Shown here one piece after another: positions 39,897 to 50,498 of a stretch of 64,000 nt of DNA. Below the pieces are notes generated by a model. It was given only the letters and a program-made list of their open reading frames with translations. It searched no databases and was not told where the DNA came from. Positions within the stretch are counted from its first letter, which is position 1; the number at the start of each line of letters is the position of its first letter. The stretch is from Longimicrobiales bacterium. Lineage in GTDB: Bacteria; Gemmatimonadota; Gemmatimonadetes; Longimicrobiales; Gaopeijiaceae. A program made the translations under genes and the position numbers. The stretch spans positions 3,040,001 through 3,104,000 of the forward strand of contig OZ220732.1 in NCBI GenBank assembly GCA_965116905.1. The letters are read 5' to 3'.

Positions 39897-39927
39897 CCGA
39901 ATGCGGACTCCCTTGCTGTCGCCATAG

Positions 39928-39943
39928 CGGAGGGGGTGGGATT
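39928..39943 (-). repeat. Duplicate of the tRNA-Ser 3' end (att-like direct repeat)
   Basis: CGGAGGGGGTGGGATT at 39928-39943 is identical to 39978-39993. Confidence 0.85.
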
Positions 39944-39977
39944 GGCCTCCGGGCGGCTCCGTATCGCTGTCGCTCAA

Positions 39978-40061
<84 letters not shown>

Positions 40062-43781: not shown

Positions 43782-44474
43782 TCAACGACCCGCCCCGCGA
43801 TCCGCCCGCCGACCCGTACGGCCGTCACTACGCCGACCCGTCCGTCGACCCGTCCCGCGATTCGCCCGCCGACCCGTACGGCCGGCGCCGGTCCCGGCTT
43901 CCAGGCGCTCCACGAGCGCGGCCGCCGACAGGAGGTCGTCCGTGACTCGAAACTCCGGTCCCACCGCGGCCTGCTCGGCGACTCCATGCCCCGTCAGCAC
44001 GAGAATCCCGGTGCCGTCCAGCGCCTGCGCGGGGAGCACGTCGCTCAGCTTGTCGCCCACGAAATAGGAGCCCGCCGTCGCGAGTCCCAGGTCGCCAGCG
44101 GCGCTCTCGTGCATGACCGTGCTCGGCTTTCGGCACGTCGTTTGGGGATCTCCGCCGGGCGCATCGGGGCAGAAGTAGGTTCCGTCCATGACGATGCCGG
44201 CGGCGAGGAGCTGCCGGTCCACCTCGGCCGCCACGCGATGATAGTCGCCGAGCGTGTAATAGCCGCGCCCGATGCCCGACTGGTTGGTGACCGTCACGAG
44301 CGCGAGCCCCAGCGCCCGCAGGCGGTGAAGCGCCTCGACCGCCCCCGGAAGGAGGGTGACGTCGCCCGGATCGGCCACGTACTGGTGGTCTTCGATGATC
44401 GTGCCGTCGCGGTCCGCAAAGACGGCGCGCCGCTTGCCGGCGAAACCGCTTCCTCCAGGACCGGATCCCGTCAT
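43782..44474 (-). CDS. gmhB: D-glycero-D-manno-heptose 1,7-bisphosphate phosphatase (HAD IIIA, GmhB-like)
   Basis: VFADRDGT, VTNQSGIGRG, CP...CRKP, VGDKLSD, VLTGHG. Repeat-derived C-terminal tail. Confidence 0.85.
   Translation of the reverse strand: MTGSGPGGSGFAGKRRAVFADRDGTIIEDHQYVADPGDVTLLPGAVEALHRLRALGLALVTVTNQSGIGRGYYTLGDYHRVAAEVDRQLLAAGIVMDGTYFCPDAPGGDPQTTCRKPSTVMHESAAGDLGLATAGSYFVGDKLSDVLPAQALDGTGILVLTGHGVAEQAAVGPEFRVTDDLLSAAALVERLEAGTGAGRTGRRANRGTGRRTGRRSDGRTGRRADRGAGR
43787..43884. repeat. Direct repeat of a 38-bp unit (60-bp period) in the gmhB tail
   Basis: gacccgYcccgcgatYcgcccgccgacccgtacggccg at 43787-43824 and 43847-43884. Confidence 0.8.
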
Positions 44475-45883
44475 TCGCCGCCCTGCACGTCCACGTCCAG
44501 TTGCACCAGCGCGTGCGCGATGATGGTGTCGCCGCCGGTCCCGAGTGTGCGAAAGTCGAACAGGATCCGGCCCTGCCGGCTGCGCGCGACGATGGGCGGC
44601 GCGTTCGCGCGGAGCGCCGCCATCCACCGTTCGGTCGCTGCCCCGGCCTCGAGGGTCAGGATTGCGCTCGGCAAGCGCGCGTCCGGGAAGGTTCCCCCGC
44701 CGACCAGCGACCGTCCCCGCACGGCCTCCAACCGCAGGGGTTCGGCCCCCCGCTCCGCGCGCAACCGGGTCACCACCCTCGCCACGCTACGCGCCTTTCG
44801 CTCCAGATCCTCCACACGCGCGGTGATCATCTTGAGCACCGGCACCCGCTCGATCGCCCGGTCCGGATTGCGGTACAGCGTGAGCGTGGCCTCGAGCCCC
44901 GCCAGGGTGACCTTGTCGCAGCGGAGCGCGCGGCACAGCGGGTGCGTCCTGGCCCGCGCGACGCCTTCGCGCTTCCCGGCCAGGATCCCGGCCTGCGGCC
45001 CGCCGAGCAGCTTGTCCCCCGAGAAAGCGACCAGATCCACCCCCGCCGTCACGCTCTCGGCCGGCGTGGGTTCGTACGGCAACCCCAGTCGCTCGCTGTC
45101 GACCATCAACCCCGACCCCAGGTCGTGGATCACGGGAACCCCGCTCTCCGCCCCCAGGCGAACCAGCTCCGTCAGCGCGGTCTCTTCCGTGAAGCCCGAC
45201 ATCGAGAAGTTCGAGCGATGGACCTTGAGGATCGCGCCCACCCCCCCGGCGGCCACCGCACGGGCGTAGTCGTCGAGCCGCGTGCGGTTCGTGGTCCCCA
45301 CGGTCACGAGGCGCGCCCCCGCGGCCTCCACCACCTCCGGGATGCGGAACCCACCCCCGATCTCCACGAGTTCGCCGTGTGACACCGCGACCCCCTTGCC
45401 CGCCGCGTGGGCCGTCAGGGCGACCGCGACCGCACCGGCCCCATTGTTGACGACCAGAGCATCCTCGGCGCCGAGCAGCTCGGTCACGAGGCCGGCACAG
45501 TGGGTGTAGCGCGACCCCCTCTCACCGGTCTCAAGATCGAACTCGACGTTCGCGTACCCGTCCGCCGAGTTCATCGCGCTGCTTGCCTCGGGCGCGAGGG
45601 GAGCGCGGCCCAGGTTCGTGTGCAGGATGACCCCGGTGCCGTTGACCACGCCGCGCAGCGACAGCGTCCCGGCCCTGGCAACCTCCATCTCCACCAGCTC
45701 TTCGTAGTCGTCCACGGAGTCGGGCACGGGGATCCTGCCGGCGCGCACCGCGTCCAGCACGGCCCGGACCCGGTCGGTGATCCATACCCGGCCGCGCGAC
45801 CCGATCAGGAGCTGGCACCACGGTTGCGCGAGGAGCCGGTCGACGCCCGGGATCGAGCGGCGGGGATCTTTCCTGGCGATCAC
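44471..45883 (-). CDS. selA: L-seryl-tRNA(Sec) selenium transferase
   Basis: VVNGTGVILHTNLGRAPL, VVNNGAGA, ELVEIGGGFRIPEV, VGTTNRT, DLGSG, FSGDKLLGGPQAG, RALRCDK. Confidence 0.95.
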   Translation of the reverse strand: MIARKDPRRSIPGVDRLLAQPWCQLLIGSRGRVWITDRVRAVLDAVRAGRIPVPDSVDDYEELVEMEVARAGTLSLRGVVNGTGVILHTNLGRAPLAPEASSAMNSADGYANVEFDLETGERGSRYTHCAGLVTELLGAEDALVVNNGAGAVAVALTAHAAGKGVAVSHGELVEIGGGFRIPEVVEAAGARLVTVGTTNRTRLDDYARAVAAGGVGAILKVHRSNFSMSGFTEETALTELVRLGAESGVPVIHDLGSGLMVDSERLGLPYEPTPAESVTAGVDLVAFSGDKLLGGPQAGILAGKREGVARARTHPLCRALRCDKVTLAGLEATLTLYRNPDRAIERVPVLKMITARVEDLERKARSVARVVTRLRAERGAEPLRLEAVRGRSLVGGGTFPDARLPSAILTLEAGAATERWMAALRANAPPIVARSRQGRILFDFRTLGTGGDTIIAHALVQLDVDVQGGE

Positions 45884-47754
45884 GGTCGCCCCTTGCCCCG
45901 GCGCGGGCGGAGCATCGGCCGCTGCCGAGGGCGGAGAATGGGCACGCGAGCGGACCTCCGGGCCGGTCCGGCCGAGCGGGCCGTGTCGGGCACCGGGACG
46001 GTGTCAGGACCTGCCACGGTATCAGGAACCACCACAGTGTCCGGTACTACCATGGTGTCCGGAACTACCACAGTGTCGGGAACCACCACGGTATCCGGAA
46101 CCACCACGGTATCCGGAACCACCACGGTATCGGGCACCACGTCAGCCGTGTCGGCCGCGGCCGTATCCGCCAGTTCCGTCGTGTCCACAGGCTCCTCCAG
46201 CTCGCCCTGCTCGTCCAGATCCTCCGGCTCCTCGGGGGGGAGTTCGAGGACGACCACGGTGGTCCCCTGCCCCCGTCCCGTCCCGGCGATGTTCATGACC
46301 CGCGATATCGACGCCTCGTACGGCACGCCGGCCCGCAGAGGCTCGAACAGCACGCCCACGAGCGTCTGCTCCGGCAGCGGAAGCCCCGAGAGCGTCACCC
46401 GGCCGGGCTCCGTGTCTTCCGCGTCCGACTCCTCTTCCTCCGCCCCGGCTGCGAGGTCGGCCAGCGCGGCGCGCGCCGCCTCCGCTCCGGCGGTGGTGTC
46501 CGCGGCCACCCGGGCCAGCGAGTCCGCGACCGCCCGCGCCGCGGAGTCCGCCCGCTCGGCCAGCAACCCCTCGTATTCGCGTTCCGTGAGGATCCGGACC
46601 CGCACGGTATCGCCAGGCTGGGGCAGCGGCAGCGTGTCGACGACCTCGGCCACGGCGGCGGAATCACCCGCCTCCACGTCGCCGGGCGCGTCGGCGGGCG
46701 GAACCGTGTCGGCCACCGCGGGCGCGTCGGGTGGCGGAACCGTGTCGGCCACCGCGGGCGCGTCGGGTGGCGGAACCGTGTCGGCCACCTCGGTCGTGTC
46801 GGCGGGCGGGACCGTGTCGGCCACCGCGGTCGTGTCGGGTGGCGGGGTCGTATCCGTCGGCTCGGTCACGTCGAGTGAATCGCCTCCTGCCTCCGCATCC
46901 ACCTCCGTGCTGTCGGTCATGTCCGCCACCACCAAACGCGCCGCGATCAGCGCTCCTGGAATCTCCGGATCGAGGTAGTCGTCGAACTCGAACCGCAGCG
47001 TCAGCGAGTCCTCCACCGTCACGCTTGCAAGTCGTGCCGGAGTCGTGTCGGGCTCGATCAGCGACAGCACCGTGAAGCTCGTGTCCGGGGTCAGGTCCAG
47101 CTGCCCGCCGACAAACCGGGTTTGCGGCTCGGACTCGCCAATCTCACGGTCGCGGTTGCGGTCCATCCACGCCCGCACCTCGTAGGGACCGTCCGGGACG
47201 TAGCGGAGCGAGAAGACCCCGTCCCGGTCGGTGAGGTTCCAGTGGGTGATCGTGTCGGTGTCCACCTGAAAGCGGGCCTCGACGCGCACGTCAGGAACCG
47301 CTTCGCCCGTCACGCGGTCCTCCACCATGCCCGCGAGGACGTTGGGCACGAAGTCGTCGCCCGTCGAGACGACCAGGTCGAAGGGGTCGCGCAACCGGTT
47401 CTGGAACATGTCGTTGATCACCGGCAACACCGTCACGCGATACAGTCTTCCGGCCTCGAATCCCTCCTGCATCTCGACGGTGATCCCGTCCCGGCCGTGA
47501 CGCACCCGCACAAGCCCCGTCGACGGCGATACGACCACGGCGTCGTTCAGGTTGCCGGTCGCGGGGCGCTCGCTGATGCGCTCGCTGAAGCGGAAGTGGA
47601 CCTCGTCGACGCCAGGCTCAACGACCGCAAAGGTATCCGGTGTCGTCTCGATCACGTACGGCGGGAAGAGGTCCTCCGGCCCGCCTGGGGGGGCCTCCGG
47701 CCGCGCACAGGCGGCCGCACCGAGCACGACAAGGCAGACCAACCCCCGCTTCAC
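45880..47754 (-). CDS. Ig-like (Big_5) domain lipoprotein with repetitive Asp/Thr/Pro-rich stalks
   Basis: Lipobox AAAC then ARPEAPPGGPED..PP..IETTPD, FRFSERI, carboxypeptidase-regulatory-like segment. GTG 47754 overlaps the valS stop. Confidence 0.85.
   Translation of the reverse strand: MKRGLVCLVVLGAAACARPEAPPGGPEDLFPPYVIETTPDTFAVVEPGVDEVHFRFSERISERPATGNLNDAVVVSPSTGLVRVRHGRDGITVEMQEGFEAGRLYRVTVLPVINDMFQNRLRDPFDLVVSTGDDFVPNVLAGMVEDRVTGEAVPDVRVEARFQVDTDTITHWNLTDRDGVFSLRYVPDGPYEVRAWMDRNRDREIGESEPQTRFVGGQLDLTPDTSFTVLSLIEPDTTPARLASVTVEDSLTLRFEFDDYLDPEIPGALIAARLVVADMTDSTEVDAEAGGDSLDVTEPTDTTPPPDTTAVADTVPPADTTEVADTVPPPDAPAVADTVPPPDAPAVADTVPPADAPGDVEAGDSAAVAEVVDTLPLPQPGDTVRVRILTEREYEGLLAERADSAARAVADSLARVAADTTAGAEAARAALADLAAGAEEEESDAEDTEPGRVTLSGLPLPEQTLVGVLFEPLRAGVPYEASISRVMNIAGTGRGQGTTVVVLELPPEEPEDLDEQGELEEPVDTTELADTAAADTADVVPDTVVVPDTVVVPDTVVVPDTVVVPDTMVVPDTVVVPDTVAGPDTVPVPDTARSAGPARRSARVPILRPRQRPMLRPRRGKGRP
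45980..46141 (-). repeat. Coding tandem repeat 9 x 18 bp (PDTVVV)
   Basis: PDTVVV x4, PDTMVV, PDTVVV, PDTVAG, PDTVPV, PDTARS, with synonymous codon variation between copies. Confidence 0.92.
46680..46857 (-). repeat. Coding tandem repeat about 5 x 36 bp (ADTVPPPDAPAV)
   Basis: TDTTPPPDTTAV / ADTVPPADTTEV / ADTVPPPDAPAV x2 / ADTVPPADAPGD. Confidence 0.9.
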
Positions 47755-50498
47755 GGGCGTTCGCCACCCAACGCTGTCAACTTTGCTTTCCATTTAGTCA
47801 ACTGCAGTTGACATGACTCCAGCTTCTGGCGCTCGCGCTCCACCACGGCCTCCGGCGCACGCGTGACGAAGTTCGGATTGGCGAGCTTGCCCTCGATTCC
47901 CTTGAGCTGCCCTGCGAGCCGCTCGACCTCGGCCAGCGTACGCGTCCGCTCCCGATCCAGGTCGATGACCCCGGCGAGGGGCAGGAACAGCTCGGTACCG
48001 TCCCGCAGGACGGCGCTGGCGCACACCGTGCTTTCCGGCGGAACCGAACGCGGCACGCTCCCGATCCGGGCCAGCCGGCGGAGCAGTTCCTCGCGCCCCT
48101 CCAGCAGATGCGCGTGCTCGCCGCCCACTGCGTGCACCGCGACCTCTCGCCCTTCGCCGACGCGGTATTCCTTGCGCATGGCGCGCACCCGCACGATGAA
48201 CTCGCGCAGCCAGTCGAAGTCGCGTTCGGCCCGCGCGTCGACGAACTCCGGAGCAACCCGTGGCCAGCGCGCGACGATCAGCGGCCCGGCGCGCTCACCG
48301 GAGACCGGAAGCAGGCCCCACAACTCCTCGGTCACGAACGGGACCAGGGGGTGCAGCAGCCGGCAGATCGCGTCCAGGACGTGGGCCAGCACCGTGCGCG
48401 CGGCTTCCCGTCCCGCTCCGCCGGCGGGCAGCCGATGCTTCACGGCCTCCAGGTACCAGTCCGCGAACTCACCGCGGAAGAAGTCGCGCATCGTCTCGGC
48501 GGCGCCCTGCATCCGGAACTGCTCCAGCTCCTCGTTCATGCGCCGCACCGCCTCCTGCCGTCGCGACAGGATCCAGCGGTCCTCGAGGGTCAGATCGTCC
48601 CGCACGTCGGCGAGCGGCAGGATCGGGTCGTCGCCCAGGCTCATGAGCGCGAAGCGGCCCGCGTTCCAGAGCTTGTTGACGAAGTTGCGTCCGGGCGCGA
48701 AGGCCGCCTCGAGGTTCTCGTGGTCCAGGCGGATGTCGGCGCCGACGCCCGCGCTCGCGAGCACCGTGAACCGGAGTGCATCGGCTCCGTGGAGCTGCAC
48801 GACCTCGAGCGGATCCACCCCGTTGCCGAGGGATTTCGACATCTTGCGGCCCTGGATGTCGCGCACCGTGCCGTGCAGGTAGACCCGCTGGAACGGCGCC
48901 TCCCCCATGGCGTGATACCCCGACATGATCATGCGGGCGACCCAGAAGAAGAGGATCTCGGGCGCGGTGGAAAGCGTGTGGCCGGGGTAGAACGCCCTCA
49001 GGTCGCGGGTCTCCTCGGGCCATCCGAAGACAGAGAACGGCCACAGCCACGACGAAAACCAGGTGTCGAGCACATCGGGGTCCTGCTCCAGCGAGGTGCT
49101 GCCGCAATCGCCGCACGCGTCGGGGTCTTCCCGCACGCAGATCACCGCACCGCAGTCGTCGCAATACCAGACCGGGATCCGATGGCCCCACCACAGCTGG
49201 CGCGAAATGCACCAGTCGCGGATGTTCTCCATCCATTGCTCGTAGACCCGCGTCCAGCGCCCCGGGGCGAAGGTGACGGCACCGGTCCGGGACGCCTCCA
49301 GCGCGGGCTCGGCAAGCGGCTTCATGCGCACGAACCACTGCTCGCTGAGCCGGGGTTCGACCACGGTGTCGCAGCGGTAGCAGCGCGGAACGGCGTGGTC
49401 GTGGTCGTCGCGTCCGGCCAGGAGCTCCTGTTCCTTCAGCGCCGCGACCACCGCCTTGCGGGCATCGAAGCGATCAAGGCCGCGGAAGGCTCCCGGCGCG
49501 TTCTCGTTCATCGTCGCGCGCTCGGTCATGACGTTGAGGACTTCGAGGCCGGTCCGCTGCGCGATCTGGAAGTCGTTGGGGTCGTGGGCGGGCGTGACCT
49601 TCACCATGCCGGTCCCGAAATCCGCGGCGACGTGCGTGTCGGCGACGATGGGGATGGCGCGGCCGGTCAGCGGCAGCTCCACGGCCGCGCCCACGAGCGC
49701 ACCGTACCGGGGATCGTCGGGACTGACGGCCACGCCCGTATCGCCGAGCATGGTCTCCGGCCGGGTAGTGGAGACGGTCAGGTACCAGCGCCCGTCGGAC
49801 AGCCGCCCCAGCGCATCCGCACCCCCGGCCCGCGCCGCGGCGGCCGCATCCTCGTGACCCGCGGCCAGCGGGTAGCGCAGGTGCCAGAGCGAGCCCCGCG
49901 CCTCGGCCCCTTCGGCCTCTTCGTTGGACAGTGCCGTCAGACAGCGCGGACACCAGTTGATGATGTATTCGCCGCGGTAGATGAGCCCGTCTTCGTACAG
50001 CGCGACGAAGATCTCTCTCACCGCCCGCGACAGGCCCTCGTCGAGCGTGAAGCGGGCCCGCGTCCAGTCACAGCTGCATCCGATGGCCTTGAGCTGGCCG
50101 AGAATGCGGTCCCCGGTCAGATCGACGTGCTCCCACACCTTTTGCACGAACGCTTCGCGACCCAGGTCGTGCCGGGTCTTGCCCTCGGCGGCCAGACGCC
50201 GCTCGACGACGTTCTGGGTCGCGATCCCGGCGTGGTCCGTGCCCGGCACCCAGAGCGTGGCGCGTCCCTGCATCCTGCGCCAGCGGATGAGCACGTCCTG
50301 GATCGTGTTGTTGAGACCGTGCCCCATGTGAAGCACGGCCGTGACGTTGGGCGGCGGAATCACGATCACGTACGGATCGCCGCCTTCCTCGACGGCACCC
50401 GCCGACGCCGCGAAATGGCCGCCCTCGTCCCACATGCGCAGGATCCGGGGTTCGACCGCCCGGGGATCGAAGGTCTTGGCAAGCACGGGGGCCTTCAA
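47751..50498 (-). CDS. valS: Valine--tRNA ligase
   Basis: PPPNVTAVLHMGH, GTDHAGIATQ, DWCISRQLWWGHRIP, DVLDTWFSS, KMSKS, C-terminal coiled coil. Confidence 0.97.
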   Translation of the reverse strand: MKAPVLAKTFDPRAVEPRILRMWDEGGHFAASAGAVEEGGDPYVIVIPPPNVTAVLHMGHGLNNTIQDVLIRWRRMQGRATLWVPGTDHAGIATQNVVERRLAAEGKTRHDLGREAFVQKVWEHVDLTGDRILGQLKAIGCSCDWTRARFTLDEGLSRAVREIFVALYEDGLIYRGEYIINWCPRCLTALSNEEAEGAEARGSLWHLRYPLAAGHEDAAAAARAGGADALGRLSDGRWYLTVSTTRPETMLGDTGVAVSPDDPRYGALVGAAVELPLTGRAIPIVADTHVAADFGTGMVKVTPAHDPNDFQIAQRTGLEVLNVMTERATMNENAPGAFRGLDRFDARKAVVAALKEQELLAGRDDHDHAVPRCYRCDTVVEPRLSEQWFVRMKPLAEPALEASRTGAVTFAPGRWTRVYEQWMENIRDWCISRQLWWGHRIPVWYCDDCGAVICVREDPDACGDCGSTSLEQDPDVLDTWFSSWLWPFSVFGWPEETRDLRAFYPGHTLSTAPEILFFWVARMIMSGYHAMGEAPFQRVYLHGTVRDIQGRKMSKSLGNGVDPLEVVQLHGADALRFTVLASAGVGADIRLDHENLEAAFAPGRNFVNKLWNAGRFALMSLGDDPILPLADVRDDLTLEDRWILSRRQEAVRRMNEELEQFRMQGAAETMRDFFRGEFADWYLEAVKHRLPAGGAGREAARTVLAHVLDAICRLLHPLVPFVTEELWGLLPVSGERAGPLIVARWPRVAPEFVDARAERDFDWLREFIVRVRAMRKEYRVGEGREVAVHAVGGEHAHLLEGREELLRRLARIGSVPRSVPPESTVCASAVLRDGTELFLPLAGVIDLDRERTRTLAEVERLAGQLKGIEGKLANPNFVTRAPEAVVERERQKLESCQLQLTKWKAKLTALGGERP

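Follow-up and report, generated by a model that had tools for sequence, protein, structure and literature searches.

Tandem D-(S/T)-x triplets in a core Gemmatimonadota lipoprotein as likely sites of Bacteroidota-type O-glycosylation

Why should a lipoprotein of a Longimicrobiales bacterium be crowded with a triplet that is known as a glycosylation signal from a sister phylum? The gene in question lies in a stretch of 64,000 nucleotides (contig OZ220732.1, positions 3,040,001 to 3,104,000; here, the window), and its 624-residue product is rich in D-(S/T)-(A/I/L/V/M/T). In Bacteroidota this triplet is glycosylated on its Ser/Thr in exported proteins, usually with high occupancy and with mannose as the first sugar of a core of the mannose-rhamnose-glucuronic acid type; modification requires export. 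About 90% of the glycosites have L/I/V/T/A/S at position 3 (PMC12871550) and none of those in a second study has R/H/K/W/Y there (PMC10897501). According to a 2025 review, no other bacterial O-glycosylation is directed by a motif; the review regards the system as unique to Bacteroidota and its transferase as undiscovered. The literature searched, which covered few subscription papers, held no report of D-(S/T)-x O-glycosylation outside Bacteroidota and none on Gemmatimonadota. The sequence evidence set out below suggests that the D-(S/T)-hydrophobic triplets of the lipoprotein are likely to be O-glycosylated after export by a system of the Bacteroidota type.

The preliminary description of the locus had counted about 30 triplets by hand; the number is exactly 30, against 3.9 expected (10,000 shuffles: standard deviation 1.9, maximum 13). 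Ser or Thr follows 34 of the 66 Asp residues, and the full motif is complete in 30 of these cases, while the remaining five reading frames of the gene hold 0-2 matches each. Eleven motifs lie in residues 277-375, 12 in the tail from residue 505 and seven elsewhere; 23 of the 30 are in or beside predicted disordered segments. The two concentrations correspond to a loop array (36-bp period, 4.5-5.1 copies, 46683-46867) and a tail array (18-bp period, 7-8 copies, 45998-46140). The tail array had been described as nine copies of PDTVVV; it does consist of nine PDT units of six residues, but the exact PDTVVV occurs in only five. Similarly, each of the approximately five units of the 12-residue loop array has at least one motif, as had been stated, but three half-units read DAP, the Thr having been lost. 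Synonymous variation around a constant D-T, the third feature described, is clear in the 6-residue array (GAT/GAC, ACC/ACT, CCC/CCG/CCT), but the 12-residue array shows little of it in its D-T codons. Variation in copy number, which had been proposed as a check, was found between close strains: related contigs carry an in-frame loop array that is shorter by a net 66 and 102 nt, and in one the tail array is a single 18-nt unit shorter (two of the four source sequencing runs are recorded as sponge metagenomes). The similar motifs pointed out in other exported proteins of the window were mostly found, the FG-GAP protein having one match, but at 1-5 per protein versus 0.6-1.9 expected they are individually no evidence.

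The behaviour of the triplet in orthologs is that of a sequon. The relatives at 89-94% identity are Gemmatimonadota of the order Longimicrobiales, and the gene was found in 41 of 41 relatives and in 149 of 151 Gemmatimonadota genomes; it is a core gene of the phylum. Across 40 close ortholog loci, which are not independent since the set contains the query itself and several genomes in duplicate, S/T follows 50% of Asp but only 6.9% of Glu. At the 1002 D[ST] sites of these loci the next residue is A/I/L/V/M/T in 86.6% (background 41.7%), after which the commonest third residues are S, G and F; counted as in Bacteroidota, 89% have L/I/V/T/A/S, and R/H/K/W/Y follows at two sites. Thirty ortholog loci hold 8-31 motifs each versus 0-2 of E[ST]x. 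Across 40 hand-picked orthologs from the whole phylum, 454 motifs were found versus 68 expected, 37 of the 40 being enriched at least threefold, and E[ST]x occurred 32 times. The recurring unit takes 14 different forms among orthologs; thus the units change and the triplet is kept. Orthologs in the other classes of the phylum are short (~320-340 residues) and have no arrays, and glycosyltransferase or sugar-modifying genes often come after them.

The lipoprotein has the features of a Big_5/immunoglobulin (Ig)-like lipoprotein family of the Fibrobacterota-Chlorobiota-Bacteroidota (FCB) group, namely a lipobox Cys, a PxGGP motif, a Big_5 domain and then a CarboxypepD-like domain. A divergent ortholog used as query retrieved 15 longer homologs, including Bacteroidales and Zixibacteria by source names, and a profile search retrieved 115 further single-unit members (organism names were checked for two of ten clusters, Zixibacteria and Ignavibacteria). 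One relative carries glycan: seven O-glycosites were detected by mass spectrometry in the 71.6-kDa Big_5 protein Tanf_02405 (TF2336) of T. forsythia (PMC8550257 Tables S1, S2). It is assigned to the family by its Pfam label and by its glycopeptides, which match by eye the aligned positions of the Bacteroidales homologs retrieved by the Gemmatimonadota ortholog (E-values 1e-7 to 1e-15). Those homologs have 12-16 motifs versus ~3 expected. They differ in being ~590-615 residues long, with dispersed sites and further folded domains, whereas the Gemmatimonadota form combines a shorter folded part with disordered arrays. The piling of 30 sites into 624 residues, in tandem arrays, also differs from the most glycosylated T. 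forsythia protein, TfsB, with 19 of 20 predicted sites. Further substrate classes are common to the two phyla: published reports give an OstA-like protein with 10 glycosites (PMC10897501) and name LptD, LptF and fusion proteins as glycoproteins, a waaL mutant showing no shift (PMC8729774).

The rest of the genome was searched for the same signal using 3232 genes from our own gene-calling script, with localisation assigned by simple signal-peptide rules of our own. In disordered exported segments, with the query excluded and repeats collapsed, the observed/expected ratio (O/E) of the motif was 83/45 = 1.85, versus 30/41 = 0.74 in cytoplasmic ones; five control motifs gave 0.89-1.18, order-swapped motifs were at chance, and DTL and DSA ranked first and second among 1430 tripeptides. 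Single-copy exported proteins were enriched (432/357 = 1.21). Ten proteins reached P < 0.001 for the sequon versus 0-5 for seven control motifs, and motif clusters occur in unrelated exported proteins (OstA/LptA-like, 25 motifs; HEAT-repeat, 19; Plug, 15; LptD, 7). In this genome the sequon signal is restricted to segments that are disordered and to envelope proteins that are single-copy. In control stretches the ratio for exported versus cytoplasmic proteins was 171/145 = 1.18 versus 0.95 in Bacteroidota records (800 kb), 0.77 versus 0.82 in Sphingomonas (800 kb), and 102/50 = 2.06 versus 0.88 in a second Gemmatimonadota stretch, G102 (400 kb). The weak sequons D[ST][SGFC] stand at 0.57 in exported proteins of the query genome, 0.40 in the Bacteroidota records, 0.70 in G102 and 0.94 in Sphingomonas; the query genome and the Bacteroidota thus avoid them and Sphingomonas does not, and in the query genome the avoidance is seen in folded exported proteins. 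Nine of the 12 largest exported paralog families avoid the motif strongly (O/E 0.17-0.62), while a family with 70 members is enriched (1.63).

Which enzyme might act on the triplets? An occurrence in a second phylum would make the search for the transferase tractable, because the enzyme must be common to both. The 97% complete genome gave no match to Wzy_C, PMT/PMT_2 or STT3, the enzyme families of the PglL/WaaL, actinobacterial PMT and PglB/STT3 systems. Two membrane GT-C families pass the filter of both phyla: YfhO, already predicted as an oligosaccharyltransferase of Bacteroidales in a July 2026 preprint (bioRxiv 10.64898/2026.07.27.740950), and a TMEM260-like (DUF2723) family, which is our own alternative. 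The TMEM260-like family is present in 150 of 151 Gemmatimonadota genomes and, among 14 control genomes, in B. thetaiotaomicron only; all five matches in a plasmid collection are Bacteroidota. The protein has motifs in common with Bacteroidales DUF2723 proteins along its length, and belongs to the same family, PF11028, as the human O-mannosyltransferase TMEM260 (PMC10214176; PDB 9RQL), which matches the copy in this genome at E 1.6e-15. Asp44, in its first outer loop, aligns with the catalytic Asp52 of the human enzyme, mutation of which abolishes activity (PMC10214176). The human enzyme serves IPT domains in animals; the literature searched, with its few subscription papers, yielded no activity for a bacterial homolog and no proposal of DUF2723 or TMEM260 in Bacteroidota glycosylation. 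In many other Gemmatimonadota the TMEM260-like gene follows that of the lipoprotein in one valS-purH string (14 loci, chosen because linked), and among the 150 of 304 enzyme matches that were listed there are 64 pairs within 13 kb and on one strand, spread over 63 of the 104 genomes for which both genes were listed. This linkage is given little weight because it is one inherited housekeeping string.

The YfhO-like gene has homologs in 61 of 61 Gemmatimonadota genomes, and its product is a full-length homolog (20% identity, E 2e-20) of the Bacteroides YfhO next to ahcY. It lies in a conserved cassette of GT2, GT4, LPG_synthase_TM, YfhO and Dpm1-like GT2 genes; of 20 loci, 19 have the GT2 and LPG_synthase_TM genes beside it and 18 the Dpm1-like GT2. 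In this genome the operon runs on past the OstA/LptA-like gene and lptB in the order rpoN, GT2, wecB, GT4, yfhO-like, LPG_synthase_TM, Dpm1-like GT2. P. gingivalis is scored as lacking YfhO in the preprint, but Table S3 of PMC8729774 lists a 'putative YfhO/PMT family' protein there; the species has this protein and a DUF2723 protein and is therefore not decisive between the two enzymes. The likeliest candidates for the initiating enzyme are the TMEM260-like and the YfhO-like protein, each tentative and neither preferred to the other; whichever does not initiate may add further sugars. The genome also has genes resembling a GDP-mannose synthase and, in the GT2 class, a polyprenol-phosphate-sugar synthase, both scoring below curated cut-offs. 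The view that the TMEM260-like protein is the only GT-C candidate was discarded, as YfhO-like and weak TMTC-like proteins are also present. The TMTC-like protein and a GT2 stand in a type IV pilin cluster, possibly as a separate pilin glycosylation module. Wzy_C and Wzx are unmatched although lpt and kds genes are present, and the lipopolysaccharide (LPS) may lack O-antigen.

Several observations weigh against a Bacteroidota-type system in this organism. The preliminary description had proposed a genome-wide comparison of motif frequency, and in bulk the exported proteins are not enriched (1119/1323 = 0.85, versus 1201/1369 = 0.88 for cytoplasmic ones). The signal-peptide class as a whole stands at O/E 0.76, large exported paralog families (five or more members) are depleted (527/761 = 0.69), and the bulk ranking of tripeptides holds no sequon signal, its top entries being beta-propeller motifs. 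The gene calls and localisation behind these figures rest on crude home-made rules, and the disorder controls rest on low, noisy counts (exported segments of Sphingomonas, 6/3.7 = 1.62; cytoplasmic segments of G102, 11/6.4 = 1.72). The lowest of the deep orthologs have only 1-3 motifs. As to machinery, the 97% complete genome has no PF01943 or PF13440 match for a Wzx flippase; the Bacteroides LFG locus, which holds metG, the wzx flippase and glycosyltransferases for the outer glycan, was not found, the neighbours of the putative metG, judged by their N-terminal sequences, not being glycosyltransferases. The TMEM260-like and lipoprotein genes are unlinked in the query genome, and the YfhO cassette stands behind LPS genes (lptB) in 16 of 20 loci and may modify LPS. 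Neither a glycan nor a glycopeptide was seen for a member of the Gemmatimonadota. The earlier suggestion of a related system outside Bacteroidota thus draws support from the Gemmatimonadota host, the sequon-like behaviour of the orthologs, the glycosylated T. forsythia homolog and the in-frame variation of repeat length, but not from the bulk test.

Could the triplets have another meaning? The least probable alternative is that the repeats are structural or compositional, reflecting Asx/ST turns, DTxxP starts of Ig-like domains, acidic metal-binding linkers or GC-rich slippage. A few sites may indeed be structural: the D-T and D-S found at three folded positions do not vary among 55 homologs, and DTx[AP]P accounts for 163 of the 646 motifs in generic Big_5 proteins. 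Yet most of the 30 sites are in or beside disorder, Glu does not replace Asp, the other frames are near-empty and order-swapped motifs are at chance. Furthermore, in the fold control the 115 single-unit family members have an O/E of 4.18, with 112 at least twofold enriched and 3.84 remaining without DTx[AP]P, whereas 35 long multi-Big_5 proteins, of unrecorded taxa, have 0.99; an artefact of the Ig fold was rejected as the source of the motif on this comparison. Together with the residue statistics of the 40 loci, the fold control largely refutes the structural explanation. A little less improbable, but still unlikely, is that an ancestral system has decayed in this lineage and that the motifs persist unmodified, by inheritance and repeat slippage. 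The absence of bulk enrichment here, set against 2.06 in G102, and the move of the TMEM260-like gene off the lipoprotein operon would fit such a decay. It is opposed by the young, lineage-specific arrays, which retain D-S/T-hydrophobic while other positions vary, by the avoidance of weak sequons in folded exported proteins and by the intact open frames of both GT-C genes.

Alternatively, the triplet may be a real modification signal, but one at which the group added is not a Bacteroidota-type glycan (a phospho-group or small adduct, for instance), or is added by an unrelated enzyme. All the evidence is of selection on sequence, not of chemistry; LFG and Wzx were not found, and a TMTC-like protein, although a weak match (E 0.035), lies near pilin genes. 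This too is improbable, if slightly less so than decay: the third-residue profile closely fits that of Bacteroidota, the T. forsythia homolog carries glycan, both GT-C families are core, and synthase-like genes for GDP-mannose and a polyprenol-phosphate sugar are present.

If, as we favour, the triplets are glycosylated, the protein would be exported by Sec and then lipidated at Cys16, and a GT-C enzyme would move a lipid-phosphate-linked mannose or short core onto the triplet Ser/Thr at the periplasmic face. Repeat slippage would gain or lose sites, while selection would hold constant nothing but the Asp, the Ser/Thr and a third residue that is small and hydrophobic. The loop and the tail, both predicted to be floppy, would become dense sugar brushes, whose likely role is in hydration, in shielding from proteases or in periplasmic spacing. 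The mucin-like stalk or tether that had been suggested does not agree with the structural model: the arrays appear not to be a spacer, because the first domain starts ~18 residues past the Cys. One array occupies a loop of domain 3 and the other the free tail at the C-terminus, and neither separates the lipid anchor from the domains.

The system would share with general O-glycosylation in Bacteroidota its triplet, third-residue preference, intolerance of Glu, substrate classes and membrane enzymes, and a bias to exported proteins only in the part of them described above; it differs in its phylum, in its tandem arrays and in the lack of a detected wzx/LFG locus. It is described as working like the Bacteroidota system and is not filed as a member, because LFG was not found and the glycan is inferred. 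Its YfhO-like component differs from that of Bacteroidales in its low identity and its place after LPS genes, and the role of the latter is itself a prediction. A wider proposal, which is rather doubtful, is that D-(S/T)-x O-glycosylation is ancestral to the FCB group, with a DUF2723/TMEM260-like GT-C, a bacterial relative of the human disease enzyme TMEM260, as initiator and YfhO adding later sugars, and that Gemmatimonadota grow tandem sequon arrays which make bottle-brushes of core envelope proteins. Clusters of similar appearance in Ignavibacteriota, Zixibacteria, Chlorobiota, Rhodothermota and Fibrobacterota are leads only. The lipoprotein, with up to ~30 sites, offers a ready gel-shift reporter. 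If the reading favoured here is right, a phylum that is abundant but little studied would have a heavily glycosylated envelope.

The layout of the protein was taken from an AlphaFold2 model built from 55 sequences (mean predicted local distance difference test score, pLDDT, 76.9), which has three confident beta domains, the first strand beginning at mature residue 19, and disordered stretches at mature residues 276-346 and 510-609. The features are collected in Table 1.

Table 1. Features of the lipoprotein gene, its neighbours and related genes elsewhere in the genome (window coordinates unless marked genome).
Feature	Coordinates	Strand	Basis
Lipoprotein gene, 624 residues, 30 D-(S/T)-(A/I/L/V/M/T) motifs	45880..47754	-	open reading frame and motif count; ortholog in 149/151 Gemmatimonadota genomes
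Signal peptide and lipobox, Cys16 the predicted lipid anchor	47707..47754	-	sequence; homolog conservation
Big_5 Ig-like domain, residues 31-126	47377..47664	-	Pfam PF13205, E 5.6e-5, above cut-off; pLDDT >90
CarboxypepD_reg-like beta domain, residues 140-200	47155..47337	-	Pfam PF13620, E 6.3e-7, below cut-off
Third beta-sandwich domain, split by loop array and helical insert	46249..47034	-	AlphaFold2 strands at mature 226-261, 368-374, 449-487
12-residue repeat array, ADTVPPPDAPAV type, predicted disordered loop	46683..46867	-	pLDDT <50 over most of mature 276-346
Predicted helical insert with motifs DSA403, DSL411, DTT419	46471..46584	-	helix at mature 376-413 in model
Disordered C-terminal tail with 12 motifs: three spaced ones followed by nine PDT units of 6-residue period	45973..46185	-	pLDDT <50
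Arg/Pro-rich C-terminal end, differing among orthologs	45883..45972	-	sequence; ortholog comparison
valS, upstream neighbour, GTGA overlap	47751..50498	-	precedes the lipoprotein gene in most relatives fetched
selA, downstream neighbour, GTGA overlap	44471..45883	-	
OstA/LptA-like protein, 25 motifs, PDSA-type tail, between lptC and lptB	genome 2914878-2916854	+	
Exported HEAT-repeat protein, 19 motifs; DSA recurs about every 18 residues in a long helical repeat	genome 1249844-1252618	+	
TMEM260-like genes (two)	genome 498948-501326 and 2064594-2066708		PF11028 above cut-off
TMTC-like membrane protein with tetratricopeptide repeats, and GT2, in type IV pilin cluster	genome 3286049-3287761	-	weak PF08409, E 0.035

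The reading frame runs from a GTG start at 47754 to 45880 on the minus strand, and the GTGA overlaps at its two ends involve the valS stop and the selA start. The lipobox Cys is nearly invariant across 55 homologs and invariant across 25 diverse ones. NCBIfam, when searched, held no model for the lipoprotein, and Foldseek with the model returned generic tandem Ig/FN3 matches only (TM score ~0.1), without a functional clue; its tandem Ig-like fold allows no more than a guess that it acts in the periplasm as a scaffold or chaperone. A contig from an RNA library spans the gene, although such a contig is not able to show transcription. Basic Arg/Pro-rich ends trail the acidic arrays in many Longimicrobiales orthologs and at the end of the OstA/LptA-like protein; they may be functional or may be GC-rich read-through to the next gene. 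Elsewhere in the window, a tRNA-like stretch apparently lies just before an AAA-ATPase gene (39900-40000), as judged from the translation of a shadow reading frame.

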